Below, one piece after another: positions 1,573 through 58,400 of a DNA stretch of 64,000 nucleotides. The position numbers were made by a program, and so were the translations under genes. The stretch is from Gammaproteobacteria bacterium (GTDB lineage Bacteria; Pseudomonadota; Gammaproteobacteria; Eutrophobiales; Eutrophobiaceae). Under the pieces are notes generated by a model. That model did not search any database. It had not been told where the DNA came from and saw only the letters and a list, made by a program, of their open reading frames with translations. Where the stretch lies: contig OZ250183.1 in the NCBI GenBank assembly GCA_965238225.1, positions 672,001 to 736,000 of the forward strand, written 5' to 3'. Positions within the stretch are counted from its first letter, which is position 1. Each line of letters begins with the position of its first letter.

Positions 1573-4500
1573 TTAAGCTTGTGACCCGAGTACATAATCT
1601 AGCCACAAATCAGATAATTTTTCTTGTACGGTATTTTGCCTGAGACGGGCATCTAAATTTGAAAAATCTACCCTGTCCAAATCCTGATCCTGATTGTAAC
1701 AGGAATATACAAAATATTCTTCTCCAGTATGAGGGTCAACGTGTTTACATAAACACTGCGCACAGACACCTTTCATCATGCACTGCATAGGGGAATTAAT
1801 CGATCCAATCGCCGTGTGTTCAGGTTTTAGATAGGGTTTTAATTGTTCCTCCCGTGCTTTTTTTACTGCCGCCATCATTTTATCAGAACCGATAACGATC
1901 ATTTGATCAACATCTTTCAGATTAATGGTTATTTCACCGAGCTGCCCTTTTGCATAGGATTCAATCGATTCAATAATATTGCCAATACATGTCCTGTCTT
2001 GTATCCGTGTCGGTTTTATGGTTTCGACTCCAAGTGCTGGGTCAACAGACCATACAATAACGTCAGAAGCCTCTTCAATATCTTTAACTTTAAACACGTC
2101 AGTCGGACTCTTGTAACCTGCAAAATAAATAACTTTATTGTTAGTTTTACGCAGTGCCTTGCCGATAGAAAATTGCACAGCATTCCCAAGACCACCGCCA
2201 ACTAGCATGATTGTCATGCCTTCACTGATTTCAGTTGGCTCACCTGTAACACCCATAACGACAAGAGGATCATCCGGTTTCCACAAGGAACACAATTTTG
2301 AAGAACTCCCCATTTCTAATGTGATGAGTGAAATGATTCCAGTTTCCTTATTAACTTCGGCACCAGTTAGTGCTAAGCCTTCCGCAGCAAGCACTGTACC
2401 ATGAGAAACTGGCGCTAGGCTTTCTAAATTTTGGACGCGGTAGAATTGTCCTGGCTGGAATTTTCTGGCTTGCATAGGTGCTTTGACAAGCACTTCTATA
2501 ATAGTTGGTGTTAGCCTGTTAACTTCTACGACTGTCGCAAGCAATTCATTATCCAGATGATCAAAGAGTTTTTTTAAGGATTGATCTCTATCCATCTGCT
2601 TTTCAGGATCAAGTGTTTTTAGTTCTTGTTCGAATAATTTAACAACATAAGGATAACCATCTTTAGCGCTGGCCATGGCTTTAACGACGTTACCCGCATA
2701 TACAGGATGATTGTCGCCGTAGAAAGATATAAATCTTCCGTTTCTACAGTACGATGTCATAGGCGCGGGTTTGCCAATCTTTGGTTGTGCTGCATCATCC
2801 ATTGGTACCAGTTCGGGAAGTTTGGAGTTGTTCCAACGTGGCTCATAACGTTGGAAGAATTTACCATCCATGCGAAAGGTGTAGGGAATTTCCTGCTCAT
2901 AGATTGTATTTGGTGAAGTCCCAGCAGCAATAAATAGACTGCGTAACGGGACATTCAGTAAATTATCTTCACCGATCCATCTACCTTCTTTTTCAACCAG
3001 CAAGTCAAAATTAACCGCTTTTAATGCACCATATTCATCTTCAATAGCTTCATAAGGACTCATGCCTTCAGCAAGCTGAATGCCTTCTTGTAGTGCTTCG
3101 TGAATTTCTTCATGGTTTTGTTTATATGCTGGTGCATCCTTAATTCCTTTGCGATAGAACATGGTGACACCGCCCCATTGGTCAATCAATGGTTGAAAGT
3201 TTGGTGATTCTCCAACAGCTTTAGCTCTGTTACGTTCTGTACAAATTGCACGACCATGCTGTATAAATTCATCTAGTATTATGATTTCTTCTTTGTCATA
3301 ACGAGCACGAATAATTTTCTCTCCTTTTTCTAACACCAGTTTTTCATAACGATGAAGAATTTTCTCAACTTGAACGGGATAATACGCCATGACCTCGGTG
3401 GTTGTATCAAGGGCAGTCAGACCTCCGCCAATGACTCCAGCTGGCAGACGAACTTGTAAATTTGCGAGCGATGATTCCTTCGCTGCCCCGGTAAGCTGTA
3501 GTGACATGAGAAAATCAGAGGCTTTGCGTATGCCTCTGATAAGGTTGTTTTTGAGCCCGATAATAGTGGGTTTGCCGGCACCATTGGCAATAGCAATATG
3601 ATCAAAACCTAAATTCCATGCTTCTTCTATGGTTATTGTGCCGCCAAAACGGACACCACCATAACATTTGAAGGACTGACGTCTGGCAAGATTCAGGTAG
3701 ATGACCTTGAGAAAATTTTTATCCCATCGAACAGTAATTCCATATTCAGCAACACCACCAAACCCCGCAAGCATTCTTTTATCCAAGTCCTCATAGAGTT
3801 CGCTGAAATCTTTTACTGGCGTTGGTAATTTATCATTGGTACCAATGAGTTTATTTGGCAGTGGTTCAATTTTTAAAGCATCGACACCGACGACGCCAAA
3901 GCCTTCACTAACAAGATAATGTGATAAAGTGTATCCGGCTGGCCCCAAACCAACCACTAGGGTATTTTTACCATTATATGGCAGGGCGTAAGGACGTTTG
4001 ATATTGAGCGGGTTCCAGCGAGTCAGCAGGCTATATATTTCAAATCCCCAAGGCATGAACAGAACATCAGTTAACACATTCGTTTCAATTTGTGGGATAT
4101 TAACTGGTTCTGTTTTCTGGTAAATGCAGCTTTTCATACATTCATTACAGATACGATGTCCGGTTCCCGGAACCATAGGATTATCAATCGTAATAAGTGC
4201 CAGCGCGCCGATATTGTCCCCTTGCCGTTTGAGGATATGCATTTCCGAAATTTTTTGTTCAAGTGGACAGCCTGTGATGGCGGTACCAATATCTGTCGAT
4301 TTAAAACCACCCGTTTTTTTATTACGCATGCCTTTTGAGCATGAATCTGTATCTCGGTCATGACAATAGATGCAGTGGTCTACTTCATATAGAGTTTCTC
4401 TTGTATTGAAACGTAGATCAGTCAGACTAAAACCATCCCGACGTCTATGCTCATGTTTAGGGCAAACCCATGTCTTAAAACCATCACGCTGCTTCATCTC

Positions 4501-5304
4501 GTGATGAACAAGATTATTTGAGTCTGTTTTCTTTGGGTTTTTGAAACTTACCCATCCAACAACTAATTTTGAAAGTTCATCATCATTTTGTGCGGCATAA
4601 CTCCAACGCTGAACCACATCTAATAATCTATTAATGAATTCAGACGTTTGTTCTTCTGAAAGCGCAGATTTAAAAGTAGTTTTTGCATCCGTATTTTCAC
4701 TGATTAATTTTCGTATTTCCGATACCTGTATATCCGCATCATCTATGTGATCACATTGATCTTCAGGCTTACCTTTAGTAATAAGCTGATAATGGTTTGC
4801 AAGTCGTATCAGTTTTGCGCCGATACGACTGATACTTCTTTCTGCATCCGGATCGTTTGCAGCGACAGGGAAGGCCGCTTTCTTCAATAGTTCTAGATCA
4901 GAGCGTATCTTTACGATGTCCCAATTTGAAATATCTTCATTTTTGAATTTTAATTTACCGACGACTTCATTGCGATAGATAAAAATTGAATCGACTTCTT
5001 CTTTTATCAACTGGGTTTGCGCAGCAACTTCATCTTCTATCTGAAAAATCTTTGTAACAAATTTCCCTACATAAGGTGCCATGCGAATTAATAAATCAGA
5101 GATAACTTGTGGGGACATATTTTCACCCTGACGGTTCTGATATTCTTGAAATTCAGAAAATAAATCCTGATCATGTTGTTGTACAGAATCTTTAAATGTC
5201 TTGTGTAAATCACGAAGACGAAGCGGCTGATGCAAATCAGCATAAGTATATCCATTAATTCCAAGAGGAAAATCTTTGTTCGTTATTTTTGTATTTGATG
5301 ACAA
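1573..5304 (-). CDS. Large Fe-S flavoprotein: GltD/NfnB-like module fused to a C-terminal FNR/NfnA(PyrK)-like module
   Basis: Fe-S motifs CIYCH...CSKG...GCP and GHRICNECMKSC; GLGPAG and GGGLTALD nucleotide-binding motifs; C-terminal GGGLGNA and SPMQCMMKGVCAQC [2Fe-2S] motif. Confidence 0.75.
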   Translation of the reverse strand: MSSNTKITNKDFPLGINGYTYADLHQPLRLRDLHKTFKDSVQQHDQDLFSEFQEYQNRQGENMSPQVISDLLIRMAPYVGKFVTKIFQIEDEVAAQTQLIKEEVDSIFIYRNEVVGKLKFKNEDISNWDIVKIRSDLELLKKAAFPVAANDPDAERSISRIGAKLIRLANHYQLITKGKPEDQCDHIDDADIQVSEIRKLISENTDAKTTFKSALSEEQTSEFINRLLDVVQRWSYAAQNDDELSKLVVGWVSFKNPKKTDSNNLVHHEMKQRDGFKTWVCPKHEHRRRDGFSLTDLRFNTRETLYEVDHCIYCHDRDTDSCSKGMRNKKTGGFKSTDIGTAITGCPLEQKISEMHILKRQGDNIGALALITIDNPMVPGTGHRICNECMKSCIYQKTEPVNIPQIETNVLTDVLFMPWGFEIYSLLTRWNPLNIKRPYALPYNGKNTLVVGLGPAGYTLSHYLVSEGFGVVGVDALKIEPLPNKLIGTNDKLPTPVKDFSELYEDLDKRMLAGFGGVAEYGITVRWDKNFLKVIYLNLARRQSFKCYGGVRFGGTITIEEAWNLGFDHIAIANGAGKPTIIGLKNNLIRGIRKASDFLMSLQLTGAAKESSLANLQVRLPAGVIGGGLTALDTTTEVMAYYPVQVEKILHRYEKLVLEKGEKIIRARYDKEEIIILDEFIQHGRAICTERNRAKAVGESPNFQPLIDQWGGVTMFYRKGIKDAPAYKQNHEEIHEALQEGIQLAEGMSPYEAIEDEYGALKAVNFDLLVEKEGRWIGEDNLLNVPLRSLFIAAGTSPNTIYEQEIPYTFRMDGKFFQRYEPRWNNSKLPELVPMDDAAQPKIGKPAPMTSYCRNGRFISFYGDNHPVYAGNVVKAMASAKDGYPYVVKLFEQELKTLDPEKQMDRDQSLKKLFDHLDNELLATVVEVNRLTPTIIEVLVKAPMQARKFQPGQFYRVQNLESLAPVSHGTVLAAEGLALTGAEVNKETGIISLITLEMGSSSKLCSLWKPDDPLVVMGVTGEPTEISEGMTIMLVGGGLGNAVQFSIGKALRKTNNKVIYFAGYKSPTDVFKVKDIEEASDVIVWSVDPALGVETIKPTRIQDRTCIGNIIESIESYAKGQLGEITINLKDVDQMIVIGSDKMMAAVKKAREEQLKPYLKPEHTAIGSINSPMQCMMKGVCAQCLCKHVDPHTGEEYFVYSCYNQDQDLDRVDFSNLDARLRQNTVQEKLSDLWLDYVLGSQA

Positions 5305-9379: not shown

Positions 9380-10714
9380 TCATTCAACCGTGCACTTTGC
9401 CTCGCCTTGGTGAAAGCGTGTGATTATTTTATCCCCTGCGCTTAGTTGTTTTGCCTCGCGTATTATTTCCTGATTGTCATATTTTTGTACAATCGCATAA
9501 CCTCTACTTAAAGTTGCAAGCGGGCTCACCGTGTTTAATGCCCTTGTCGTCGTTTGTATTTGTGCATGCAGATTTTGGTAGTGATGATTTATTGCGCGTT
9601 GCAAGCGTTGATAGATTTGCTCAGACTGAGCTATAAAAAAATGTAATTTGTGTAAGGGGTTTTGTTTATTTAGAGCAGAAAGTTGTTCGTGTACTCTATA
9701 ATTTTGTTGTGCCACTATTTCTTTGCTTGAACGATGCATGCGTATAAAAAGATCGTCAAGCCTTTGCGCATGATTTTGTAATTGTGTTGCTGGACTGGTC
9801 AAGCATTTCCCTAGATGTATAATATTTTGTTTAAGCACTCTTAAGTTAGCCTGAAGAATTTGTGATAAACGGGTGTACTGAAGCGATAAAGTCTGTTTTA
9901 TTTGCATCTGATCCGGGCTAACTAACTCGGCTGCTGCCGTTGGTGTGGCGGCACGTTGGTCGGCAACAAAATCGGCAATGGTAAAATCAATCTCATGGCC
10001 GATTCCAGATACAACAGGAAGAGCACAAGCAAAAATAGCTCGAGCAAATGTTTCATCATTAAATGCCCAGAGGTCTTCTGTAGAACCTCCGCCACGCGCA
10101 ATAATAATCACATCACATTCATTTCTTTTTTCGGCAGTTTTGAGCATTACTGTAATTTTTTTTGCAGCACCATCGCCTTGAACAACCACAGGGTAAATTA
10201 TGATATTCCCTGCTGGATAGCGACGCTTTACGACACTTAAAATATCCCTGATGGCTGCACCTGTAGGAGATGTAATAATGCCGATTGTTTTAGGTATGGT
10301 GGGGATAGGTTTTTTATGGCGTTCTTCAAACAAACCTTCCTTAAATAATTTTTGTTTTAATTCTTCATATGCACGTTGAAGCTCGCCCTCGCCAGCAAGC
10401 TCCATATGTTCAATGATTAATTGAAATTCACCACGCCCTTCATAAAGACTGACATTTGCGTGAACCAGAACTTCCGCACCATTTTTTGGTTCAAATTTAA
10501 GGTATCGGTTTTTACCTTTAAACATGGCGCAGCGTACCTGAGAGTGAATATCTTTTAAGGAGAGATACATATGGCCTGAGGCAGGGCAGGCAAAATTTGA
10601 TATTTCGCCCTGTAACCAGATAGACGGAAAATTACCCTCTAATAGCGCACGAACTTCACGATTTAGCCGGGTAACATTGTAAATATTTTGTTGTTTGTGG
10701 GGGGTATCGCTCAT
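9380..10714 (-). CDS. xseA: Exodeoxyribonuclease VII large subunit
   Basis: GEISNF..SGH, ARGGGS, GHEIDFTIADFVAD motifs; divergent from guaB. Confidence 0.95.
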   Translation of the reverse strand: MSDTPHKQQNIYNVTRLNREVRALLEGNFPSIWLQGEISNFACPASGHMYLSLKDIHSQVRCAMFKGKNRYLKFEPKNGAEVLVHANVSLYEGRGEFQLIIEHMELAGEGELQRAYEELKQKLFKEGLFEERHKKPIPTIPKTIGIITSPTGAAIRDILSVVKRRYPAGNIIIYPVVVQGDGAAKKITVMLKTAEKRNECDVIIIARGGGSTEDLWAFNDETFARAIFACALPVVSGIGHEIDFTIADFVADQRAATPTAAAELVSPDQMQIKQTLSLQYTRLSQILQANLRVLKQNIIHLGKCLTSPATQLQNHAQRLDDLFIRMHRSSKEIVAQQNYRVHEQLSALNKQNPLHKLHFFIAQSEQIYQRLQRAINHHYQNLHAQIQTTTRALNTVSPLATLSRGYAIVQKYDNQEIIREAKQLSAGDKIITRFHQGEAKCTVE

Positions 10715-12311: not shown

Positions 12312-12363
12312 TATAAATTACTGCTTCGTTGTTATTTTTCTCAGTTAATTGCGTTTTCAAATA

Positions 12364-13938
12364 ATGCCTGATCTTCATTCTGAAAAAATCCTTATTCTGG
12401 ATTTTGGCTCCCAGTACACACAGTTAATTGCACGTCGTGTGCGCGAAGCAAATGTCTATAGTGAAATCCAACCTTTTGATATATCAGAAGACGAAATCAA
12501 GACATTAAACCCTAAAGCAATTATCCTTTCAGGAGGGTCAGAGTCTGTCGTCGTGCAAAGCTACTGCAAAGCGCCAGAGATAATTTTTCAAATGAATATT
12601 CCTGTTCTGGGGATATGTTATGGCATGCAAACTATGGCAGCGCAACTTGGCGGCAAGATTGAATCTTCCAGCATAAGAGAGTTTGGTTACGCACAAGTAC
12701 GCGCTAAAGGTCATACAACATTATTAAAAGATATTCAGGATAGCTCAAATGACGAAGGGCATGGTTTATTGGATGTTTGGATGAGTCATGGTGATACAGT
12801 CGTCGAGTTGCCCGAAGGATTCAAGCTTATGGCTTCGACAGAAAATGCGCCAATAGCAGGCATGGCGGATGAAAAAAGAAATTTTTATGGCGTGCAATTT
12901 CATCCAGAAGTCACACATACCAAGCAAGGCGCAGCTATCATTAAACGATTTCTCTATAAGATTACTGGTTGCGAGCCTTTGTGGGATATAGACACCATCG
13001 CAAAAGACACAATCAACACCCTCAAAAAGAAAGTTGGTAAAGATAAAGTATTACTAGGATTATCAGGCGGTGTAGATTCTTCCGTTACCGCTGCTTTGCT
13101 TGACGAAGCCATTGGCGAGCAATTAATTTGTGTCTTTGTTGATAATGGTTTGTTGCGTTTACATGAAGGCGATGAAGTGATGAAAATTTTTGCCAAGCAC
13201 ATGGGTATTAAAGTTATTCGTGTTGATGCAGAGGATCGGTTTTTAAATGCGCTTTCCGGTATTTTTGATCCTGAAGAAAAAAGAAAAATTATTGGTAAAA
13301 CTTTTATTGAAGTTTTTAATGAAGAAGCCGAAAAGTTTGATGGTGTTAAGTGGTTAGCTCAGGGAACCATATATCCTGATGTCATCGAATCAGCCGGCGC
13401 AAAGACAGGCAAGGCGCAAGTCATCAAAACACATCATAATGTTGGCGGCCTGCCAGATAATATGCAATTTAAATTGGTTGAACCTCTGCGTGATCTGTTT
13501 AAAGACGAAGTGCGAAAACTTGGCATACAGTTAGGCTTGCCAAAAAGCATGGTCTATCGTCATCCATTCCCAGGGCCAGGCTTGGGTGTAAGGATTCTTG
13601 GAGAGGTAAAAAAAGAATATGCCGATCTTTTGCGTAAAGCCGACGCGATTTACATGGAAGAATTAAACAAGCAAGATTTATATAGCACAATCAGCCAAGC
13701 CTTTGCGGTTTTTCTTCCTGTAAAATCTGTAGGCGTGATGGGGGATGCACGTAAATATGATTATGTTATCGCGCTTCGCGCTGTTCAGACAATTGATTTT
13801 ATGACAGCACGATGGGCGAGGCTGCCTTATGAATTTTTAGAAACTATTTCAAGTAGGATTATTAATGAAGTCGATGGTATTTCGCGTGTTACTTATGATA
13901 TTTCAAGCAAGCCACCGGCAACTATTGAGTGGGAATAG
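12364..13938 (+). CDS. guaA: GMP synthase (glutamine-hydrolysing); probable ATG start at 12364
   Basis: [21 protein letters not shown] and C-terminal KPPATIEWE. Confidence 0.97.
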
Positions 13939-13950
13939 AAAACCCCTCTG

Positions 13951-13973
13951 AAACCCTTTAAAATAAAGGGTTT
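13951..13973. repeat. Perfect inverted repeat just after guaA (terminator or att-arm element)
   Basis: AAACCCTTTA-AAA-TAAAGGGTTT. Confidence 0.5.
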
Positions 13974-14148
13974 GAGATCATTCAAAGTGTGACAAACTTT
14001 GTCAAAGTAATGAAAGAATGCCAGTTTCAGAGCACTAAAAACAAACATACGGTAAACTCTCGCTACTACTGAAAGTCATAAGTTGTTAAGGATTTTGTAA
14101 AAATAATCAATTATATTTAAGATATTACTTTAAGTAAAATTTTCAAAC

Positions 14149-15951
14149 ATGGATCCTTCTATGAAAAAGAACATTTCCTATTCTACAATCGATGGAACTT
14201 TAATAAAAAAAATCGTTAGTGAAGCTGTTGATATTTTAGGTTTTGAAGATAAAAAAATTCTGCATCTTAATATTACAAACTTGTTTGAAGATAATTTTTC
14301 ACTTTTTGATACAAATAAGAATAAGAAACTTAAAAATCAGTATGTCAACAAGGAGACATCAGAATTTAACAAGGAAGAAAATCAAAAATACAGCAAAGAT
14401 ATTGATGCCATAGGTCAAATTATAGAAGGGAATTCAAAAAACAAATATGATTTTATATTTGCAGACATTCCATTTGATGGTCGATCTGAAAAAGATTATT
14501 GCCTTTCAATAATGAAATCATTGGAGTCTAGTGGTGTAGGAGTTTTTTTAATGCCTAGTTATTTAAATACTTTTAAAAGTTTTCAAGGCAAAAAATTCAC
14601 AAAAAACTTAAAAGAAGAGGGTTATAAAGTTTTGTCAGTTATCCAATTGCCTAGAAACTTAATGCGCCCAAGTAGCATGATTCAAACAAACCTAATCTTT
14701 TTAACAGAAGATAACGGCATCGCAGAAACTTATTTTGCTAAATGCTCTGAATATCAATTTTTTGATTTTCAATCTAAATTGATAGGTTTGGGCATGCTTG
14801 CACTTTATGATAAAAAAACAAGAAAAGAGTTTTTTGAAGCAGAAACAGATGAGATTAAAAAAACAAATAGAAAAAGAAAAAATTTATTTTATGGTGTTGA
14901 AGAAAATATAGATAACTTTAATGGTTTTGAGCACTGGGAGAACGAAAGAGAATTTCAAAAGATTGAAACAGAATATGGTGGTTATAATTTTTTAAAATTA
15001 AATGAATTCACCACTATCAATCAGACTAGAGATAAATTTGATGATTTAGATAATGCATTCTACATCCCTGCTATTGGAGAGACATTAGTGACTAAAGAGA
15101 TTCCAGATGAATCCTTAAAAAAGAAACCACAAAATTATTTTCAAATAATAGTTAATAATAATAGAGTAAAAAAAGAATATTTAGTTATTTATTTTAATAG
15201 TGAACATGGTCAAAAAAGTATTGAACTTGAATTCTTAAAGTATGCCGAGGTAACTATGCAGATGTTAAGAAAAACAGACATTGAAAATATCTTAATTCCT
15301 GTTCCTAATTTAGGCATTCAAGATGAAATTATTGAAAATATTTCTAAATTAAAGAAAGTTAAAACTTTACTAACAAGTATCGAAAATAGTCTTTCATTCA
15401 AACCTATATCATCCTCAGAACAGTTAAGTAAACTAAATCAAATTTATGAATCCTCTATGGACTTAAGTGAGGTAGAAATAACCTTTAATGATATAAAAAA
15501 AGGAGAATCCATAAATAGAGAGTTTAAGCAAACATTTGCATTAGATATAAAAAGTAAAAAAAGAGAAGACCATATAGTTTTCGAGTGTATAAAAACAGTT
15601 GCAGGTTTTTTAAATGGCAGTGGTGGAAATCTATATATAGGTGTTGCAGATAATTCAGACATTACCGGAATAAATGTTGAAATTGGCAGTAAGAAATTAT
15701 TTAAAAGTCTCGATAAGTATTTATTAAGTATTAAAGATACCCTTAAGAGAAAGTTAGGGGTTGCAAGTCTAAAGAACTGTAATTTTGTTCCGGTTAAACT
15801 TAAAGGAAAGCAGATTCTTACAATAAAGTGTCAACAATCAGGTCATCAAGTTTATATTGATGAAAAAGATACTTACTTAAGGGTTGGTCCATCAACAGAA
15901 AAACTTGAAGGACCAGAGTTAGTAAAATTTTCTAAAGAAAGATTTGGTTAA
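14149..15951 (+). CDS. Degenerate N6-MTase/TRD (type I R-M-like) region fused to a C-terminal Schlafen/AlbA_2 domain
   Basis: YDFIFADIPF (motif IV-like) and VIQLPRNLM..SSMIQTNLIFL (HsdM-like); YLVIYFNS..G...IENILIPVPNLGIQDEII (HsdS/TRD-like); GESINREFKQT...TVAGFLNGSGGNLYIGVAD...YLRVGPST (AlbA_2). Confidence 0.7.
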   Translation: MDPSMKKNISYSTIDGTLIKKIVSEAVDILGFEDKKILHLNITNLFEDNFSLFDTNKNKKLKNQYVNKETSEFNKEENQKYSKDIDAIGQIIEGNSKNKYDFIFADIPFDGRSEKDYCLSIMKSLESSGVGVFLMPSYLNTFKSFQGKKFTKNLKEEGYKVLSVIQLPRNLMRPSSMIQTNLIFLTEDNGIAETYFAKCSEYQFFDFQSKLIGLGMLALYDKKTRKEFFEAETDEIKKTNRKRKNLFYGVEENIDNFNGFEHWENEREFQKIETEYGGYNFLKLNEFTTINQTRDKFDDLDNAFYIPAIGETLVTKEIPDESLKKKPQNYFQIIVNNNRVKKEYLVIYFNSEHGQKSIELEFLKYAEVTMQMLRKTDIENILIPVPNLGIQDEIIENISKLKKVKTLLTSIENSLSFKPISSSEQLSKLNQIYESSMDLSEVEITFNDIKKGESINREFKQTFALDIKSKKREDHIVFECIKTVAGFLNGSGGNLYIGVADNSDITGINVEIGSKKLFKSLDKYLLSIKDTLKRKLGVASLKNCNFVPVKLKGKQILTIKCQQSGHQVYIDEKDTYLRVGPSTEKLEGPELVKFSKERFG

Positions 15952-16138
15952 TAGATCGAGTCAATCTTTGTCACAAAATTACTCAAAATAGGGAATTATG
16001 ATAGTTAAAACAGAATATGTCGTGACAAACTACTTTTTTCACCTCTACATCCCTTTGTTTGTAAGGTTTTCAAAATTACCGACTATTGAGTAGGAATAGA
16101 GAAGAAAATTATTTAAAACAAACGATTTAGGAGAAAAA

Positions 16139-16252
16139 ATGAAATATATTTTAATTTTGTCTTTAATATTTCTTTCGGCATGTCTTGGATCAGTAAAACC
16201 ATCAGTTAAAAATTTCACTGAAAATTTTAGCCTAGAGAGACTTTCAGATTAA
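16139..16252 (+). CDS. Small (37 aa) putative lipoprotein, possibly a truncated gene
   Basis: AGGAG RBS; MKYILILSLIFLSACLGSVKPS... with lipobox LSAC; too short for the ORF track. Confidence 0.4.
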   Translation: MKYILILSLIFLSACLGSVKPSVKNFTENFSLERLSD

Positions 16253-16291
16253 GTTAAACACAGTTCTTCAATAATTATATTAAAGCCTTAT

Positions 16292-16313
16292 CTGTAGCAT
16301 GACTGTAGCATGA
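16292..16313. repeat. 11-bp perfect tandem repeat (possible integrase arm-type site)
   Basis: CTGTAGCATGA x2. Confidence 0.45.
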
Positions 16314-16392
16314 ATATAAAAAATTATTGTTATGATAATGTTGCCTGAAAGAAATTCTGTTTTTCTACAGGCAGATAAAAAAAGCAGGGAAA

Positions 16393-16854
16393 ATGATTAC
16401 TGATAAAAAATTCATGCAAAAAGCTTTTAAGCTGGCAAAAAAAGCCGAAGTACAGAATGAAATTCCAGTCGGCGCTGTCGTTGTTTGTGAGGGGGAAGTA
16501 GTCGGCGAAGGCTGGAATCAATCAATATTATCAAATGACCCAACAGCGCATGCAGAAATTATGGCGTTGCGAGCTGCTGGGAAGAAGATTGCTAATTATC
16601 GTTTACCAAACGCAACTATTTATACCACGCTTGAGCCTTGCGCTATGTGTGCGGGTGCAATTATTCATGCGCGTCTTTCTAAACTTGTATACGCGGTTGA
16701 TGATCCAAAAACAGGCGCTTGTGGCAGTGTGGTTAATCTACTTCAGCTTGCAGAATTAAATCACAAAGTTGAAATAGAAAAAGGTGTTTTAGAAAAAGAG
16801 TGCAGAATATTGCTACAGAATTTTTTTAGAAATAAAAGATTAAACAAAGCATGA
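16393..16854 (+). CDS. tadA: tRNA adenosine(34) deaminase
   Basis: AHAE and TLEPCAMC motifs. Confidence 0.95.
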   Translation: MITDKKFMQKAFKLAKKAEVQNEIPVGAVVVCEGEVVGEGWNQSILSNDPTAHAEIMALRAAGKKIANYRLPNATIYTTLEPCAMCAGAIIHARLSKLVYAVDDPKTGACGSVVNLLQLAELNHKVEIEKGVLEKECRILLQNFFRNKRLNKA

Positions 16855-17464: not shown

Positions 17465-18361
17465 TTAGCTAAATGCCCATGCCGCGAAAGGTTCGATTTC
17501 ATCCTGGTTTACAACGATTAATTGATGTTTTATTGGGTTCAATGAGTGATCCGAAGTCGTATCTACGGATAATTGTTGTAACAGATAACCGATCAAAGCA
17601 CGCCGGATTTTTATTTCAATCAAATCATACTTACACTCGTAATCAATGAGCAAACTGGCCTTCTTTTTATCATCCAGATTCGGATGTGGTGCCAATTGTA
17701 CAGTGATTATCTCTGTCCAATCATCATCATACTGGGCGCTGGATTCAGCAGCCTGGTCAAGACATATTGCAGATTCAAAGCGGGACAAGACGAAATCTCT
17801 AAAATCAAATGTATCTTCGTTATAAGCGCGAACATGCCAACGAAAACCAGTGTTGATTAAAGCGTGCGCTTCGATAATACGAGATTTTTTATTACCGCTA
17901 TCAGAAAGTGAATGGTAACTAACCTTTAGTTTCTTATGGCCATGTATGGCGCGCGTAATTTGCGCAAGTACGGGCTTATCAGGGAATCGGCTCGGCAATG
18001 TTAGACCTTCGACGGGGATTCCAAAAATAGCACTTTCTTGATTGGCTTCGCCGGTTGCGACCAAATTGGCGTAAATGATAGGCAAAACAACCTCAGGGGA
18101 GAGATCGGCAAAGACTTCCTTAAACTCAAGTGTCGGGACAAATCCGAAGACATTATGTTTGTATATCAAGTTTTCTGGGGCTATATCATTGTAAAGCTTC
18201 AGGTCTTTGGTGGCGGCAGCATCTGAAACTCCAAACGCCTTGGCAACATCACTGCGAGTGATAAGCCCCGTGTAATAGGCTATTAGCTCTATATATTGCA
18301 ATCTTTGGCGTGTTGCCCATTTGATCTCATTTAACATCATTTTTTCTGTTTTTACGCCCAA
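17465..18361 (-). CDS. WYL-domain transcriptional regulator (wHTH-WYL-WCX, CapW/BrxR-like)
   Basis: N-terminal RQRLQYIE..AYYTG.ITRSD...FGVS...ATKDL..Y helix-turn-helix; RWHVRAY...FRDFVLSRF WYL core. Confidence 0.8.
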   Translation of the reverse strand: MGVKTEKMMLNEIKWATRQRLQYIELIAYYTGLITRSDVAKAFGVSDAAATKDLKLYNDIAPENLIYKHNVFGFVPTLEFKEVFADLSPEVVLPIIYANLVATGEANQESAIFGIPVEGLTLPSRFPDKPVLAQITRAIHGHKKLKVSYHSLSDSGNKKSRIIEAHALINTGFRWHVRAYNEDTFDFRDFVLSRFESAICLDQAAESSAQYDDDWTEIITVQLAPHPNLDDKKKASLLIDYECKYDLIEIKIRRALIGYLLQQLSVDTTSDHSLNPIKHQLIVVNQDEIEPFAAWAFS

Positions 18362-18568: not shown

Positions 18569-19639
18569 ATGACTACAGCAACAGCTAGAGACAGCAAACA
18601 TAAGGCATTAGAGGTAGCGCTCAGCCAGATTGAAAAACAATTTGGCAAAGGCTCTGTGATGAAAATGGGCGATCAATTGGTCGCAAATATTCCCACTGTC
18701 AGCACCGGATCATTAGGTCTTGATGTAGCATTAGGCGTGGGGGGGTTGCCTTATGGGCGTGTTGTTGAGATTTACGGCCCGGAATCATCCGGCAAAACAA
18801 CATTAACCTTGTCAGTCATTGCTGAGGCACAAAAACAAGGCAAGATCTGTGCTTTTATTGATGCAGAGCATGCGCTGGATCCAGTTTATGCAGAAAAATT
18901 GGGTGTCAATATTGATGATTTACTGGTTTCACAGCCCGACACAGGCGAACAGGCTTTGGAAATTTGTGACATGTTGGTTCGTAGCGGTGCGGTTGAACTT
19001 GTGGTGATCGATTCAGTCGCAGCCTTGGTGCCAAAGGCAGAAATAGAAGGGGACATGGGTGATTCACACATGGGGCTTGCTGCGCGTTTAATGTCACAGG
19101 CATTAAGGAAATTAACTGGCAACATCAAACGTGCAAATTGCTGTGTCATTTTTATTAATCAGATAAGAATGAAGATTGGCGTTGTGTTTGGAAACCCTGA
19201 AACAACAACGGGCGGTAATGCGCTGAAATTTTATTCCTCGGTTCGTTTAGATATTCGCCGAATTGGCGCAATAAAAAAAGGTGATGAGGTTGTCGGTAAC
19301 GAAACACGAGTCAAGGTGGTTAAAAATAAAGTAGCGCCGCCATTCAAGCAAGCGGAATTTAATATCTTGTATGGCGAAGGAATATCCCGCCATGGTGAAA
19401 TAATAGACTTAGGCGTGCAGCTTGACCTGATTGAAAAATCAGGATCATGGTACAGCTACAATAAAGACAGAATTGGACAAGGCAAAGATAACGTTCGTAG
19501 TTTTCTAAAAGAAAACCCTGATATTGCAGATAAAATTGAGGCACAAATAAAAGCAAAGCTTATGCCTGCCATTGCAGATAAATCTTTACCTGATGATGCC
19601 AAAGCAGCCGAAGCAGCCAAGGCAAATCTTAGCGCCTGA
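18569..19639 (+). CDS. recA: Recombinase RecA
   Basis: GPESSGKTT and [14 protein letters not shown]. Confidence 0.99.
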
Positions 19640-24604: not shown

Positions 24605-24695
24605 GGAGAGGTGGCCGAGCGGCTGAAGGCGCTCCCCTGCTAAGGGAGTATGGGTCAAAAGCCCATCGAGGGTTCGAATCCCTCTCTCTCCGCCA
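24605..24695 (+). tRNA. tRNA-Ser(GCT)
   Basis: Cloverleaf with long variable arm; anticodon arm CTCCC-CTGCTAA-GGGAG; GGTTCGAATCC; CCA end; typical position after csrA. Confidence 0.95.
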
Positions 24696-24732
24696 TTTGA
24701 TTAGCACAAAAACGCACCTGCCACGCAAACAT

Positions 24733-24809
24733 GCGCCCGTAGCTCAGCTGGATAGAGTGCCTGGCTACGAACCAGGAGGTCGGGAGTTCGAATCTCTCCG
24801 GGCGCGCCA
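24733..24809 (+). tRNA. tRNA-Arg(ACG)
   Basis: GCGCCCGTAGCTCAGCTGGATAGAG..., anticodon arm CCTGG-CTACGAA-CCAGG, GTTCGAATC, CCA end. Confidence 0.95.
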
Positions 24810-24827: not shown

Positions 24828-25562
24828 TTAATATGTAAATAGCGCCTTACTATCCTTGTAGTTTGTTTCAAACCGCTTCTGTCCATTTTCATCCCACCGA
24901 GTAGACAGTCCATCTTTCTTCCCATCCTTGTAGTTTCCTTCAATCTGCTTCTGTCCATTTTCATGCCACCCAGTAAACAGTCCATCTTCCTTGCCATCCT
25001 TATAGTTTCCTTCAGCCTGCTTCTGTCCATTTTCATCCCAAGTAGTAAGCAGTCCATCTTGCTTGCCATCCTTATAGTTTATTTCAGTCTGCTTCTGTCC
25101 ATTTTCATACCAAGCAGTAAGCAGTCCATCTTGCTTGCCATCCTTATAGTTTCCTTCAACCTGCTTCTGTCCATTTTCATACCAACCAGTAAGCAGTCCA
25201 TCTTGCTTGCCATCCTTATAGTTTCCTTCAGCCTGCTTCTGTCCATTTTCATACCACTCAGTAGTTAGTCCATCTTCCTTGCCATCCTTAAGGTTTATTT
25301 CAGTCTGCTTCTGTCCATTTTCATCCCACCGAGTAAGCAGTCCATCTTTCTTGCCATCCTTATAGTTTATTTCAGCCTGCTTCTGTCCACTAGAATATTT
25401 TCTAGTTACTTTTCCGGTGTAGGGCTGTTCACTATTTACTTCATAATAAACACCATTACGATTCTGTAACTGCTGTGTATCAATTGTCTTCCCATGAGCT
25501 ACTGTATTTTTACAAGCTATGAGAATGATGAACGATATGAATAATATTTTTGTTTTGTTCAT
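24828..25562 (-). CDS. MORN_2/YwqK-type repeat lipoprotein (about 8 x 24-aa repeats), cassette 1
   Basis: Signal peptide with LIAC lipobox; repeats of W[HYD]ENGQKxxExNYKDGKxDGLxTx. Confidence 0.85.
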   Translation of the reverse strand: MNKTKILFISFIILIACKNTVAHGKTIDTQQLQNRNGVYYEVNSEQPYTGKVTRKYSSGQKQAEINYKDGKKDGLLTRWDENGQKQTEINLKDGKEDGLTTEWYENGQKQAEGNYKDGKQDGLLTGWYENGQKQVEGNYKDGKQDGLLTAWYENGQKQTEINYKDGKQDGLLTTWDENGQKQAEGNYKDGKEDGLFTGWHENGQKQIEGNYKDGKKDGLSTRWDENGQKRFETNYKDSKALFTY

Positions 25563-25664
25563 CGAAATGATTCCTAAATTATTGTGTAAAAGCGTAGCTT
25601 ATTTGTAACCATTCTATTCTTTTGCTTCATTAATTGATACTAATATTAGCTATTGCGAGCGTTG

Positions 25665-25677
25665 CAAGTTATTGATT
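25665..25677 (-). promoter_or_regulatory. IHF consensus site next to the att core of cassette 1
   Basis: Reverse complement AATCAATAACTTG matches WATCAANNNNTTR; a one-mismatch copy lies at 27522-27534 in cassette 2. Confidence 0.5.
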
Positions 25678-25706
25678 TACTTTGATATTATATATTTAAT
25701 ACTAGC

Positions 25707-25751
25707 CTACGAACCAGGAGGTCGGGAGTTCGAATCTCTCCGGGCGCGCCA
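25707..25751 (+). repeat. tRNA-Arg 3' half (att core copy 2)
   Basis: Identical to 24765-24809; starts exactly at the anticodon loop CTACGAA. Confidence 0.95.
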
Positions 25752-25769
25752 ATTCCCATCTTGTACTCC

Positions 25770-27417
25770 TTAATATGTAAATAGCGCCTTACCATCCTTG
25801 TAGTTTTCTTCAGACCACTTCTGTCCATTTTCATACCACAAAGTAGTTAAACCATCTTTCTTCCCATCCTTGTAGTTTATTTCAAACCGCTTCTGTCCAT
25901 TTTCATGCCACCAAGTAGCCAGCCCATCTTGCTTCCCATCCTTGTAGTTTTCTTGAGCCTGCTTCTGTCCATTTTCATGCCAGTCAGCAGTTAAACCATC
26001 TTTCTTCCCATCCTTATAGTTTCCTTCAGTCTGCTTCTGTCCATATTTATCCCACCAAATCCTGAAGTTTCCTTGAGCCTTTTTCAGTCCATTTTCATGC
26101 CACCCAGTAGTTAACCCATCTTGCATACCATCCTTGAAGTTTATTTCACCCTCCTTCTGTCCATTTTCATCCCAATAAGTAGACAGTCCATCTTGCTTCC
26201 CATCCTTGTAGTTTGCTTCATCCTTCTTCTGTCCATTTTCATGCCACGAAGTAGTTAAACCATCTTCCTTCCCATCCTTGTAGTTTGTTTCAGACCGCTT
26301 CTGTCCATTTTCATGCCACAAAGTAGTTAAACCATCTTTCTTCCCATCCTTATAGTTTCCTTCAGCCTCCTTCTGTCCATTTTCATGCCACAAAGTAGTT
26401 AAACCATCTTCCTTCCCATCCTTGTAGTTTGTTTCAGACCACTTCTGTCCATTTTCATCCACAAAGTAGTTAACACCATCTTGCTTCCCATCCTTGTAGT
26501 TTGTTTCAGACCACTTCTGTCCATTTTCATGCCACCAAGTAGTTAAACCATCTTTCTTCCCATCCTTGTAGTTCATTTCAGCCTGCTTCTGTCCATTTTC
26601 ATGCCACGAAGTAGTTAAACCATCTTGCTTCCCATCCTTGTAGTTTCTTTCAAACCGCTTCTGTCCATTTTCATGCCACCCAGTAGTTAACCCATCTTGC
26701 ATACCATCCTTGTAGTTCATTTCACCCTCCTTCTGTCCATTTTCATGCCACCAAGTAGACAGTCCATCTTTCTTGCCATCCTTATAGTTTTTTTCAGCCT
26801 CCTTCTGTCCATTTTCATGCCACCCAGTAGTTAACCCATCTTGCATACCATCCTTGTAGTTCATTTCACCCTCCTTCTGTCCATTTTCATACCAAGCAGT
26901 AGCCAGCCCATCTTCCTTACCATCCTTGTAGTTTCATTTCAGACCGCTTCTGTCCATTTTCATGCCACAAAGTAGTTAAACCATCTTTCTTCCCATCCTT
27001 GTAGTTCATTTCACCCTGCTTCTGTCCATTTTCATACCAAGCAGTAGCCAGCCCATCTTCCTTACCATCCTTGTAGTTTCCTTCAGACCGCTTCTGTCCA
27101 TTTTCATGCCACGAAGTAGTTAAACCATCTTCCTTCCCATCCTTGTAGTTCATTTCACCCTCCTTCTGTCCATTTTCATGCCACAAAGTAGTTAAACCAT
27201 CTTCCTTCCCATCCTTGTAGTTTGTTTCAGCCTGCTTCTGTCCACTAGAATATTTTCTAGTTGCTTTTCCGGTGTAGGGCTGTTCACTATTTACTTCATA
27301 ATAAACACCATTACGATTCTGTAACTGCTGTGTATCAATTGTCTTCCCATGATCTACTGTATTTTTACAAGCTATGAGAATGATGAACGATATGAATAAT
27401 ATTTTTGTTTTGTTCAT
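25770..27417 (-). pseudogene. MORN_2/YwqK-type repeat lipoprotein (about 20 repeats), cassette 2, split by a +1 frameshift near 26932
   Basis: ORFs 26917-27444 and 25770-26864 join if the extra T in GTTTCAT (26931-26937; other repeats read GTTCAT) is removed; N- and C-termini nearly identical to the cassette 1 gene. Confidence 0.75.
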
Positions 27418-27563
27418 TGAAATGATTCCTAAATTATTGTGCAAAAGCGTAATTTAATTTGTAAACAATTCTATTATTTTACTTCACTAATCTCTACTGA
27501 TATTAGTTATTGCGAGCGTTGCAAGTTATTGGTTTATTTTGATACTGAATACTCAGTACCAAC

Positions 27564-55462: not shown

Positions 55463-58400
55463 TCAAGCAACCCACTGGCGCGCGTTATAAAATATTCTCA
55501 TCCATGGCCCGTTCTCGGCATCCCATGAATCGGGTAGCCACGAATATTGTTTTTTCAAAAAAACTCTTTCAGGGTGTGGCATCATGATGGTGAAACGACC
55601 ATCTCTTGTGGTAAATCCTGTCTGACCCTTGGGCGATCCATTAGGGTTCATAGGATAGATCTCGGTAACATTAGCTTTATAGTCAACATATTGCATTATC
55701 GCAATTGCCTTATTTGCTGATTGTTTGTCTTGATGCGCGACGCGACCTTCCCCATGTGCAACAACGATAGGTAGTTTGGAATGTTGCATATCTGTTAAAA
55801 ATATAGACGGTGAGCTGAGTATTTTTATCATGATCAATCGTGCTTCGAATTGCTCAGAGACATTGCGATTAAAAACAGGCCAATGTTCTGCTCCGGGGAT
55901 AATGTTTTTTAAATGAGAGAACATCTGGCAGCCGTTACACACACCAAGACCAAAGCTATCTTGTCTTTCAAAGAATGACTGAAATTCGTTACGTGCTATT
56001 TCATTAAATAAAATAGAGTTTGCCCAGCCTCGTCCGGCACCGAGGACATCACCATAAGAAAACCCACCGCACGCAGCTAAGCCTTTAAATGATTTAAGTG
56101 ACACTGTACCTGCAATGATATCACTCATATGAACGTCAATACATTCAAACTCAGCATGATGAAATGCTGCGGCCATTTCAACCTGCCCATTGATACCTTG
56201 CTCACGCAAAATAGCTATTTTTGGTTTTACACCAGTGTTTATGTAGTGTGCATGAATCTTTTCGTCTGCATCAAATTTAGTATCTACAAATAAACCATTA
56301 TCATCTTTTTCAAGCAAACGGTCATATTCCTGTTTGGCAGAGATAGGGTTGTCTCTTAACGCTTGCATCCTGAAAGTTGTTTCAGACCATGAACGATGTA
56401 GTGAAAGAATTCCTTCTGAAAAAATAGTTTTATTATTTTTAATTATTCTTAGTTGGCGATCTTGATTTAGTGTTCCAATATCATGAATATTTTTTTGTAG
56501 AGATTCTGAATCTTTAAATACTTTATAAACTTCTTGTATATCTTCAGAGCGTATTTGTATAACAGCGCCTAATTCTTCGTTGAATAAAGCTGCAATTATT
56601 TCGCACGAAAAATCCAGATTAATGTTGATACCTTTACGCGCTGCAAAAGCCATTTCACATAGTGTGGCAAATAACCCGCCATCAGAGCGATCGTGATATG
56701 CTAGAATAATACCTGCTTCATTTAACAATTGAATTGATCTGAAAAACACTTTTAGATCATGAGGGTTTTCAATATTAGGCGTGTTACCAGAGATTTTCTG
56801 ATAAACCTGAGTTAAACAGGAACCACCTAAACGATTCTTTCCAAGACCTAAGTCAATCAATAATAATCGTGTTTCCTCTTGATTAATCTTGAGTTCTGGG
56901 GTGAGAGATTGGCGCACGTCAATGACAGGTGAAAATGCTGCAATGGTTAATGACAGCGGTGAAGTGACTTGTTTTTTTTTGTCAGAATCTTGGTGAGACC
57001 ACACCGTGTTCATTGATAGAGAATCTTTACCTACTGGAATACATATCCCAAGTTCCTGGCAGAGTTCGCTAACAGCATGCACTGTGTTAAAGAGTTTTAC
57101 ATCTTCATCACCTTGTCCGCAGGCGGCCATCCAGTTTGCAGAGAAAACAATATCTTCCATTTGAAGAATTCTTGCAGCGGCAATGTTTGTGATTGCCTCA
57201 CCAATAGCCATTCGTCCGGAAGCGGGCGCATCAATTAATGCAATGGGCGCACGTTCGCCTATCGCCATGGCTTCTCCTGTATAGGCATCAAAAGAACTGG
57301 TTGTGATGGCGCAATCCGCAATAGGTGTTTGCCATGCGCCGACCATTTGATCCCGTATAACCAGACCGGAAACAGAACGATCACCAATGGTAATCAGAAA
57401 ACTTTTGTCTGCCACAACAGGTAGATGCAATATTCTGTGAGCAGAATCTTTTATATTTAAGGTTTCACTTTTAAATTTATTATAAGTTTGCATCTGTGTT
57501 TGAGCTGTTCTCCTCAAACGAGGTATCTTGCCTAGTAATAATGACAAAGGTAAATCAACAGCTTTGTTGTTAAATAGTTCATCATTCAAAGTCAGGCTCT
57601 GTTCTTTGGTAGTTTCACCAAGAATTGCAAAAGGTGCACGTTCACGTTCGCAAAGATGACTGAAACATTCGATAGATTCTGAAGCTATGGCGAGGACATA
57701 GCGTTCCTGAGATTCGTTGCACCAGATGGCCATGGGTGACATTCCCGGCTCATCATTGGGGATCTTGCGTAATTCAAATGTTGCGCCCCGCTGATTGTCA
57801 TTGATCAATTCCAAAAGCGCATTTGACAAGCCTCCTGCACCGACATCGTGAATAGAAATGATTGGATTTGATTCGTTCAATGCCAAGCAGGCATCAATAA
57901 CCTCCTGACAACGTCGTTGTATTTCCGGGTTCTCTCTTTGTACGGAAGCAAAATCAAGATTCTCTCTACTTTTACCTGAGGTCATCGATGATGCAGACCC
58001 CCCTCCAATCCCGATAAGCATCGCAGGGCCGCCAAGGACGATTATTTTTGCAGCAGCAGGAATATTACCTTTTTCAATATGCGCATTTCTAATCATTCCA
58101 TAACCGCCTGCGAGCATAATGGGTTTATGGTAGCCACGGATGATTTGGCACTTTGCTTCTTTTTGTTCGTAGCTACGGAAATAGCCAGCAAGTGCAGGCC
58201 TGCCAAATTCATTGTTGAATGATGCTGCACCTATGGAACCTTCCAACATAATATCTAGGGCAGAGGCTATGCGGTAAGGTTTGTCGTGGTCGATTTCCCA
58301 AGCCTGATGAAAATCAGGAATGTTGAGATTTGATACAGAAAAACCAGTCAGACATGCCTTTGGTTTTGCGCCACGACCTGTCGCAGCTTCATCTCTGATT

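Follow-up and report, generated by a model that had tools for sequence, protein, structure and literature searches.

A candidate single-chain sensor-effector: a decayed Type I methylase-like module fused to a Schlafen domain on a guaA islet

The gene P0001 lies on a small islet at the 3' end of guaA in a 64-kb stretch of DNA from a gammaproteobacterium (assembly GCA_965238225.1, contig OZ250183.1, positions 672,001 to 736,000; hereafter the window, on which open reading frames (ORFs) and other features are numbered). We found that the N-terminal two-thirds of its product appear to be a Type I methylase module, made up of an HsdM core and half an HsdS, and that the chain ends in an AlbA_2 (Schlafen) domain. 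On balance, we favour the reading that P0001 is a single-chain sensor-effector, in which a dead module of methylase and target recognition domain (TRD) would gate a phage-triggered tRNase. An earlier note, made from the letters of this DNA alone, implied a greater novelty than the literature allows: the architecture is already catalogued (as pSlfn22 and as Cluster 3), and its class is uncharacterised rather than a new kind of system. What is new here is the decay of the methylase motifs across the family set against an invariant nuclease, the single-gene cassette at guaA that distant marine hosts have in common, and how large the family is in metagenomes.

Results

P0001 combines a Type I methylase-like module with a Schlafen domain

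The earlier note had read P0001 as an HsdM-like part followed by an HsdS-type TRD and an AlbA_2 domain, and had called for profile searches and structure prediction. This order of domains was borne out by Pfam, PADLOC, a profile match to PDB entry 7eew and Foldseek, with a partial fit in the N-terminal part. Pfam matched SLFN_AlbA_2 at aa 453-586 (E 7.3e-17; 62.4 bits against a cut-off of 25.3) and Methylase_S at aa 269-412 (E 7e-5; 23.5 bits, barely over the curated cut-off of 22), and all 21 PADLOC matches were to 'Type I specificity subunit' models, at aa ~295-417 with a best value of 2.3e-8. The N-terminal part had no significant Pfam match. Pfam found neither the HsdM N-terminal domain nor a PD-(D/E)xK or HNH domain in P0001, and no HEPN nuclease or ABC ATPase was found by Pfam or PADLOC. 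Two candidates were rejected: a PrrC-type or HEPN nuclease, for which there were no HEPN or ABC ATPase matches and no hsd genes nearby, and a Type IIG enzyme with a PD-(D/E)xK domain, which Pfam did not find.

Comparison with NCBIfam gave nothing relevant, and a PDB search with the single P0001 sequence returned chance matches only. A profile of 30 homologues matched 7eew_A (E 2.7e-4, profile positions 69-225), an 'intact MTase' from Vibrio vulnificus in which HsdM and HsdS are fused. This alignment spans the motif IV-VIII half only; it places the family pattern 'YD-x-I-F-x-D-x-P-F' on the motif IV stretch and 'G-I-G-x-x-L-M-P' on 'GGRAAIVIP'.

An AlphaFold2 model of P0001 built on 30 homologues had a mean pLDDT of 81.6, with low confidence limited to aa 1-10, aa 61-73 and a linker at about aa 410-440. 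In this model aa 388-417 form a long helix, the counterpart of the conserved helix of HsdS, which is followed by two shorter helices. Foldseek with the whole model ranked 7eew_A first (5.5e-13), then CamA, BpuSI, M.BseCI, HsdM chains and M.TaqI, and matched the C-terminus to the AlbA_2 protein 3lmm. With a separate model of aa 1-265 (pLDDT 89.6), Type I methylase chains made up 11 of the first 12 matches listed, the twelfth being BsaXI. The fit to a gamma-class Rossmann methylase fold is partial (TMq 0.34-0.46, with about 126-131 columns at about 3 A, or roughly half of the 265 residues); in the model the motif IV-VIII half appears to be well kept and the SAM (S-adenosylmethionine)-binding half remodelled. 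A search of a viral fold library returned ordinary methylase-TRD proteins and no recognisable tri-domain match.

The methylase motifs have decayed across the family

In Type I methylases, motif I is the glycine-rich SAM-binding loop and motif IV has the form (D/N)PP(Y/F/W). The earlier note had described motif IV as degenerate and the SAM-binding loop as missing from P0001, and both descriptions proved correct in the translation and in the family alignments. Residues 106-109 read DIPF. Across the 30-sequence alignment of the close family, position 106 is D in 22, S in 5, H in 2 and N in 1; position 107 is F in 15, L in 7, M in 5, I in 2 and Y in 1, with proline in 0 of 30; position 108 is proline in 28 of 30; and position 109 is F in 20, W in 7, L in 2 and P in 1. 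In most of the 121 aligned short-form representatives, defined by a length of 500-660 aa, motif IV is replaced by D-(L/F)-P-(L/I/F); proline stands at position 107 in 4 of the 121 and an aromatic residue at position 109 in 48, so that 73 have none there. The pattern [DNS]PP[YFW] occurred in only 1 of 145 representatives (P0055-P0199), itself a long HsdM form.

The strand that would carry the SAM loop, aa 37-47, has no glycine in P0001. In the 30 family members it reads L-H-L-x-x-S/T-x-F-F, with no conserved glycine and no glycine-rich SAM loop, and we found no N-terminal D/E..GxG pattern; the long relatives described below do have the loop. The sole GxG (aa 129-131) comes after motif IV and falls where 7eew has 'GGRAAIVIP'. 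A local hhalign comparison of the N-terminal profile with three long HsdM forms was collinear, with a gap at their 'DPxxGxG' loop; it was not significant (E 0.032, 1.6% probability) and is a hint only. Because the SAM-binding loop and the catalytic motif are both lost, the methylase module of P0001 can, as judged from its sequence, hardly methylate DNA.

The nuclease signature is fixed

The AlbA_2 domain of P0001 carries the signature E453-x4-E458-F-K460 together with I-G-V-A-D501. The retention of its acidic residues (E453, E458 and D501), which the earlier note had pointed out, holds for the whole close family: E453, E458, K460 and D501 are each present in 30 of 30 sequences. Among the 121 short-form representatives E453, E458 and K460 are found in 121 of 121 and D501 in 119. 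This motif is the same as the catalytic Ex4(E/D)xK reported for tested prokaryotic Schlafens (pSlfn; PMC13056530) and as the E-D-K triad reported for Cash (PMC13462974). The domain thus keeps a complete Ex4ExK plus D active-site signature and is a predicted nuclease. It is basic, with a family mean net charge of +5.3 and an isoelectric point (pI) of about 9 (9.4).

P0001 belongs to a large environmental family

A word-indexed search returned 53 other proteins, 51 of them at 41-64% identity and almost all from marine or other metagenomes; one was named '[Gammaproteobacteria bacterium]'. Among 1.84 billion representatives, searched exhaustively with HMMER, 3546 matched at E <= 1e-3, 1053 at E <= 1e-10 and 244 at E <= 1e-30. 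The best 150 HMMER relatives are mostly 520-640 aa long and aligned over about aa 240-599, many also over the N-terminal part. When 35 of these were scanned with Pfam, AlbA_2 was found in all 35 and Methylase_S (E <= 0.01) in 18. In clusters of ESM Atlas look-alikes, which we treat as leads only, AlbA_2 was present in 98-100% of the members and Methylase_S in roughly one in four.

Three of the 35 scanned relatives were long forms (776-868 aa) with HsdM_N and a strong N6_Mtase match. In these proteins (P0141, P0147 and P0168; HsdM_N, N6_Mtase, TRD and AlbA_2) the SAM glycine loop is intact; because IPPF, SPPF or TPPF stands for the expected NPPF, even these 'intact' Schlafen-fused methylases look unusual at the catalytic residue. 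By hhalign, aa 261-600 of P0001, its TRD-helix-AlbA_2 module, proved homologous to the corresponding module of P0147 (E 3.5e-48, 29% identity).

Mean pairwise identity in the 30-member close family is 0.27 for aa 1-95, 0.40 for aa 96-260, 0.54 for the TRD, 0.65 for the helices and 0.61 for AlbA_2, making the N-terminal domain the most variable stretch of the family. A rise in conservation from sensor to effector has likewise been reported for pSlfn5 (PMC13056530). In a quick FastTree tree of the TRD-AlbA_2 module, from which we draw no order of events, the marine family formed one clade (support 0.992) and the three HsdM-intact forms were scattered among short forms.

The gene is the sole cargo of an att-flanked islet at guaA

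The claim of the earlier note that P0001 is the only gene in an att-flanked islet was confirmed. Two 22-nt direct repeats, identical at 20 of 22 positions, enclose it, and between them there is no other ORF of at least 60 aa (Table 1). The 22-mer had only these 2 matches at up to 3 mismatches within the 64 kb, and 0 of 100 shuffles gave any. The GC content is 0.26-0.30 across the gene and islet and about 0.39-0.45 in the flanks. We found no integrase ORF in this islet or in the cassettes of the second locus described below, and no ORF for a small membrane effector of the ronA type between the repeats. The left end of the islet contains a conserved non-coding block, inside which lies a palindrome, TGACA-N5-TGTCA (13990-14004), that is unique in the window; the block might serve as operator, promoter element or site of recombination. 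The sequence GTGACAAAC occurs in the 64 kb only at 13989 and 16022, close to both islet ends. A search of 13800-16500 against Rfam gave no match, and a promoter and terminator scan was at chance level (11 found against 13.3 expected).

A scan of a genome collection yielded 8 loci, one of which, L001 from a SAR86 single-cell genome, carries a full-length homologue; the neighbourhoods compared are those of P0001 and L001. The L001 homologue is 50% identical to P0001 and lies directly after guaB-guaA in low-GC DNA, while the GuaA proteins of the two organisms are only 59% identical. L001 has three copies of the 22-mer, at 9427, 12532 and 12901. Copies 1 and 2 enclose three genes, namely a 130-aa ORF with no Pfam match, whose end overlaps the start of the homologue gene, the homologue itself, and a homing-type endonuclease with GIY-YIG and NUMOD domains; copies 2 and 3 enclose a cassette with an ABM-family gene and no P0001 homologue. 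L001 9427-12922 thus holds two tandem integrase-less cassettes and looks like a cargo cassette array at one att site.

The 98-nt block at the left islet end is shared between the two loci (window 13987-14084; L001 about 9472-9569), with an alignment score of 32 against 11.0 +/- 1.7 for shuffles, none of 500 reaching it. Between the right islet ends of window and L001 there was no significant similarity (score reached by 41 of 500 and 1 of 500 shuffles). Searching the window with tblastn revealed no remnant of the 130-aa ORF or the GIY-YIG gene (best E 0.92); because neither L001 partner gene has left a remnant, P0001 stands alone in its islet. We conclude that the islet is a cargo cassette with no integrase of its own, from a family of elements directed at the 3' end of guaA, where other islands such as GIsul2 are reportedly also found (PMC9376610).

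The surrounding genes are housekeeping genes

Upstream of the islet lie xseA, guaB and guaA, and downstream tadA, a CinA-type gene, a WYL-domain gene, recA, recX, alaS and an aspartate kinase gene. We ran PADLOC on 38 of the 57 window ORFs of at least 110 aa, which leaves out shadow ORFs overlapping longer ones and two open-ended ORFs, and Pfam on 28; ORFs from 42 kb onward were scanned by PADLOC only. The 28 Pfam-scanned ORFs are housekeeping genes. The absence of a restriction subunit, stated in the earlier note, was upheld among the 38 ORFs, in which PADLOC found no hsdR, hsdM, hsdS or complete defence system; its matches were generic only (ABC ATPase, DEDDh exonuclease, WYL). As for the association with defence genes that the earlier note wanted checked in homologues, PADLOC found no defence system among the 38 window ORFs and the L001 surroundings look like housekeeping genes; five published entries of the pSlfn22 class list defence genes beside them (see Discussion).

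Several other features of the window were observed. A 37-aa ORF (16139-16252, forward strand), situated in the low-GC DNA that separates the right repeat from tadA, has a lipoprotein-type signal (…LSAC…) and no Pfam match, and may be a remnant or a small lipoprotein gene. The WYL-domain protein (17465-18361, reverse strand) is divergent from recA (18569-19639) and may be a DNA-damage or defence-type regulator. Three consecutive genes with MORN_2 repeats (244, 364 and 175 aa; 24828-27444, reverse strand) lie just after tRNA-Ser(GCT) and tRNA-Arg(ACG) at 24605-24809. Two very long ORFs, both on the reverse strand, gave no match: one of 1243 aa at 1573-5304 by Pfam or PADLOC, and one of 1298 aa at 55463-59359 by PADLOC, the only scan applied to it.

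Table 1. Features of the guaA islet and of P0001, in window coordinates.
Feature	Position	Strand	Basis or remark
guaA (GMP synthase), target gene	12349..13938	+	Pfam GMP_synt_C and GATase
Left att-like direct repeat, guaA 3' end	13921..13942	+	last 18 nt of guaA and 4 nt past its stop
Hairpin directly 3' of guaA	13947..13977	+	14-nt arms, 93% complementary, 3-nt loop; absent there in L001
Conserved non-coding block, left islet end	13987..14084	+	98-nt ungapped local alignment with L001 left end
P0001 gene	14149..15951	+	intact ORF, ATG start, 600 aa, stop included
Vestigial HsdM-like Rossmann domain, aa 1-260	14149..14928	+	profile match, Foldseek, family alignment; no SAM glycine loop
Degenerate motif IV counterpart DIPF, aa 106-109	14464..14475	+	translation, profile alignment, family alignments
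HsdS-type TRD, aa 261-387	14929..15309	+	Pfam, PADLOC, 30-homologue profile
Helices, aa 388-452	15310..15504	+	structure model, profile
Schlafen/AlbA_2 domain, aa 453-600	15505..15948	+	Pfam; E453, E458, K460 at 15505-15528, D501 at 15649-15651
Right att-like direct repeat	16082..16103	+	20/22 identical to left; guaA TGG codon is TAG here

Discussion

A proposed sensor-effector mechanism

It has been previously reported that prokaryotic Schlafens with Ex4(E/D)xK are phage-activated tRNases joined to varied sensors (PMC13056530; PMC13462974), and that Cash cuts tRNA with its E-D-K triad after oligomerisation (PMC13462974). In the mechanism that we propose for P0001, the dead methylase/TRD module would persist as a binding scaffold and keep the nuclease silent. 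A phage-derived ligand would fill the former DNA-binding groove, upon which the Schlafen domains would unite and cut tRNA, as RorSlfn5 and Cash do; translation would halt and phage yield would drop. The active form is probably at least a dimer, in which two chains would pair through the HsdS-like helix in the way of half-HsdS proteins and the 7eew fusion: two HsdM-HsdS1/2 fusions are reported to rebuild M2S1, and single-TRD HsdS proteins to self-dimerise (PMC12429846).

Two triggers share the weight within this mechanism about equally, and the evidence does not separate them: a DNA-mimic anti-restriction protein, and phage DNA, which the TRD and the vestigial base pocket would read. The DNA mimic is favoured because of the precedent of Ronin, because the 7eew structure has, by its title, Ocr bound, and because the module would have no self-marking activity. 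Phage DNA, perhaps with a modified base, is favoured because a TRD is present and because D106 and P108 show residual conservation. Ronin, as described by Silas et al., consists of hsdS and hsdM without hsdR together with RonA, a 61-aa effector, and is triggered by Ocr, ArdA or Aop1; it was unaffected by mutation of the HsdM active site, methylation being dispensable (10.1101/2023.04.06.535777). The suggestion of the earlier note, a guard or decoy that triggers RNA cleavage, would fit this and the recent Schlafen literature; part of it loses ground in that DNA is an equally good candidate for the trigger as an anti-restriction protein.

A narrower version of the mechanism, which we put forward tentatively and hold to be possible if rather unlikely, is that P0001 acts as a single-chain decoy. 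It would be bait shaped like the Type I M2S complex, and binding of a phage DNA mimic would free the fused Schlafens to destroy tRNA.

Several observations weigh against a phage-triggered sensor-effector. No known defence gene was found within +/-10 kb of P0001 (38 ORFs); the neighbours of the L001 homologue also look like housekeeping genes, with no R-M (restriction-modification) genes beside it, and neither of the two loci inspected is a defence island. A tblastn search for phage-borne homologues found none, plasmids gave 3 matches to the AlbA_2 part only, and mobile-element evidence for P0001 is limited to the islet itself. The HsdM-like and TRD parts are not basic (family mean net charges -4.6 and -0.5; +3 and -6 in P0001 itself), which speaks weakly against a groove for DNA or a DNA mimic, and so against both triggers. 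The conserved D106 and P108 might suit a base reader, and a pure decoy would need neither. In addition, only 2 of 7 pSlfn genes tested protected E. coli, and 30.4% of pSlfn genes are without a defence neighbour (PMC13056530). No RNase, defence or binding activity is reported for P0001 or, in the literature searched, for its class.

Alternative explanations

We regard it as unlikely that P0001 has no part in defence and is instead a DNA-binding protein serving the islet (in maintenance, addiction or choice of the guaA site) or a domesticated regulator whose AlbA_2 domain binds nucleic acid. An islet that is att-flanked and without integrase, yet common to distant hosts, would suit such a role, as would the housekeeping neighbourhood and an automatic cluster name that calls AlbA_2 a DNA-binding domain. 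The second L001 cassette, however, is bounded by the same repeat and holds no homologue, relatives elsewhere show no link to guaA, and catalytic residues invariant in the 121 representatives argue for an enzymatic function.

A restriction-like DNA nuclease is improbable. Here the TRD and vestigial methylase would read DNA, perhaps with a phage-specific modified base, and AlbA_2 would cut it, in the manner of a Type IV-like or a degenerate Type IIG-like enzyme. The whole-chain Foldseek matches do include single-chain nuclease-methylase-TRD enzymes (BpuSI, 3s1s, at 2.1e-7, and BsaXI), those long relatives whose SAM loop is intact could be genuine R-M enzymes, AlbA_2 has a basic pI of 9.4, and a DUF262-Slfn fusion gave broad defence (PMC13056530). 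Against these points, the characterised Schlafen nucleases in the cited literature all cut tRNA (PMC13056530; PMC13462974; 10.64898/2026.05.29.728809), a protein that does not methylate would have no self-protection unless it recognised only modified DNA, and Pfam found no PD-(D/E)xK or HNH domain.

Quite improbable, too, is a PrrC-like role as accessory subunit or guard, serving a complete Type I R-M system whose genes lie elsewhere in the genome; the HsdM-like part would dock on a resident HsdR/HsdM and the nuclease would be freed when that enzyme is inhibited. Such an arrangement has a precedent in PrrC, which EcoprrI keeps silent until the phage peptide Stp sets it free (PMC3710099), and two of the five pSlfn22 rows with listed defence genes adjoin Type I R, M and S genes (PMC13056530). 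P0001 itself, however, is alone in its islet with no hsdR, hsdM or hsdS among the 38 ORFs scanned in the 64 kb, its L001 homologue is likewise found without R-M genes, and it lacks the HsdM N-terminal domain.

Finally, an orphan methylase, with an adenine methyltransferase that is divergent but active and an AlbA_2 domain that binds DNA, was rejected on motifs I and IV and is very improbable indeed: an HsdM-like fold and a TRD are present and D106 and P108 are fairly conserved, but the glycine-rich SAM loop is found in 0 of 30 family members, the first motif IV proline is missing in 30 of 30 and the aromatic residue in 73 of 121 wider relatives, and the half with motifs I-III fits solved methylases poorly (TMq 0.34-0.46).

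Significance

A role in bacterial immunity was demonstrated only recently for Schlafen tRNases, which carry many different sensor domains. The P0001 family offers a sensor of clear ancestry, a Type I methylase core with half a specificity subunit; with catalytic motifs decayed in at least 121 sequence clusters and nuclease residues fixed, it would make a clean natural example of an enzyme turned sensor. The environmental family is much larger than the reference genomes show, at 244 clusters (E <= 1e-30) against 4 catalogued proteins of the exact architecture. A one-gene cassette at a conserved guaA site in small marine genomes is also a compact candidate for experiments. If P0001 is indeed a decoy, it would merge decoy immunity of the Ronin type with tRNA depletion of the Schlafen type in one mobile gene, acting in streamlined marine bacteria in which perhaps no restriction system remains to be protected, and would extend decoy immunity beyond the Ronin of E. 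coli and link it to tRNA depletion.

Comparison with known systems

Perez Taboada et al. (Nat Microbiol 2026) described 5,930 prokaryotic Schlafens with a conserved Ex4(E/D)xK, 97.1% of them fused to other domains, and defined 55 pSlfn architectures, with 69.6% of pSlfn genes at most 10 kb from a defence gene; a DUF262-Slfn fusion conferred broad defence (PMC13056530). In the supplementary tables of that paper the pSlfn22 class comprises 8 proteins, 4 of them 'NADP_Rossmann.TRD.pSlfn', with a class-level value of 1, which we take as the share of members that have a defence neighbour; of the 8 rows, five list 1-7 defence genes each, two of these including Type I R, M and S genes. The word 'methyltransferase' is absent from its main text. 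Weickert et al. (Nat Commun 2026) described a Schlafen 'Cluster 3' as 'Direct fusions with methyltransferases' of R-M systems (PMC13462974), and a preprint on Schlafen-Argonautes describes a Schlafen-ATPase module fused to a Type I specificity subunit (10.64898/2026.05.29.728809). The main texts of PMC13056530 and PMC13462974, as searched, contain no test of the class and no remark on a dead methylase. Our literature search on Schlafens with HsdM or an inactive methyltransferase found no experimental test of a pSlfn22-type class, with PDF and bioRxiv supplements outside that search.

P0001 shares with pSlfn22 and Cluster 3 the order of a Rossmann-like domain, a TRD and a C-terminal Schlafen domain, as well as the Ex4(E/D)xK motif, and it is similar in size to the listed pSlfn22 members (about 541-544 codons against 600 aa). 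We place it in pSlfn22 by domain architecture, homology being shown to the 121 representatives of the same architecture. The listed pSlfn22 members come from reference genomes (Spirochaetales, Burkholderiales and others) and, in the five rows mentioned, have defence-gene neighbours, whereas P0001 is alone in a guaA islet amid housekeeping genes.

RorSlfn5 and CbCash have in common with P0001 a Schlafen nuclease domain with the catalytic motif, a sensor fused to the effector, and oligomerisation tied to activity, which in P0001 is a prediction. Their sensors differ: an Ig-like domain that recognises the T5 tail-assembly chaperone in RorSlfn5, Csx15 with cA4 in CbCash, and an R-M-derived module in P0001. 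The Schlafen domain is N-terminal in RorSlfn5 and CbCash and C-terminal in P0001.

Ronin, like P0001, has a Type I methylase module without a restriction subunit, which is fused and decayed in P0001; Ronin itself needs no methylation, and most Ronin-carrying E. coli genomes are reported to be without any Type I R-M system (10.1101/2023.04.06.535777). It differs in having three genes, an intact HsdM and a 61-aa membrane effector, where P0001 is one chain with a decayed methylase and, from its motifs, a putative RNase-type effector.

The Vibrio vulnificus YJ016 HsdM-HsdS(1/2) protein of 7eew is the best structural match, and the sole significant sequence-profile match, for the methylase part of P0001. 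Both run from an HsdM core through a single TRD to a helix, and two 7eew-type chains rebuild M2S1. In the 7eew protein, deposited as a methylase, the HsdM N-terminal region is present and there is no nuclease domain, whereas P0001 lacks about 200 of its N-terminal residues and has AlbA_2 in addition.

Finally, PrrC and RloC embody the same concept, an R-M-associated RNase as a second line of defence. PrrC differs in being a separate protein, with a HEPN nuclease and an ABC ATPase, in an hsdMSR operon, none of which applies to P0001, where sensor and candidate nuclease are joined in a single chain.

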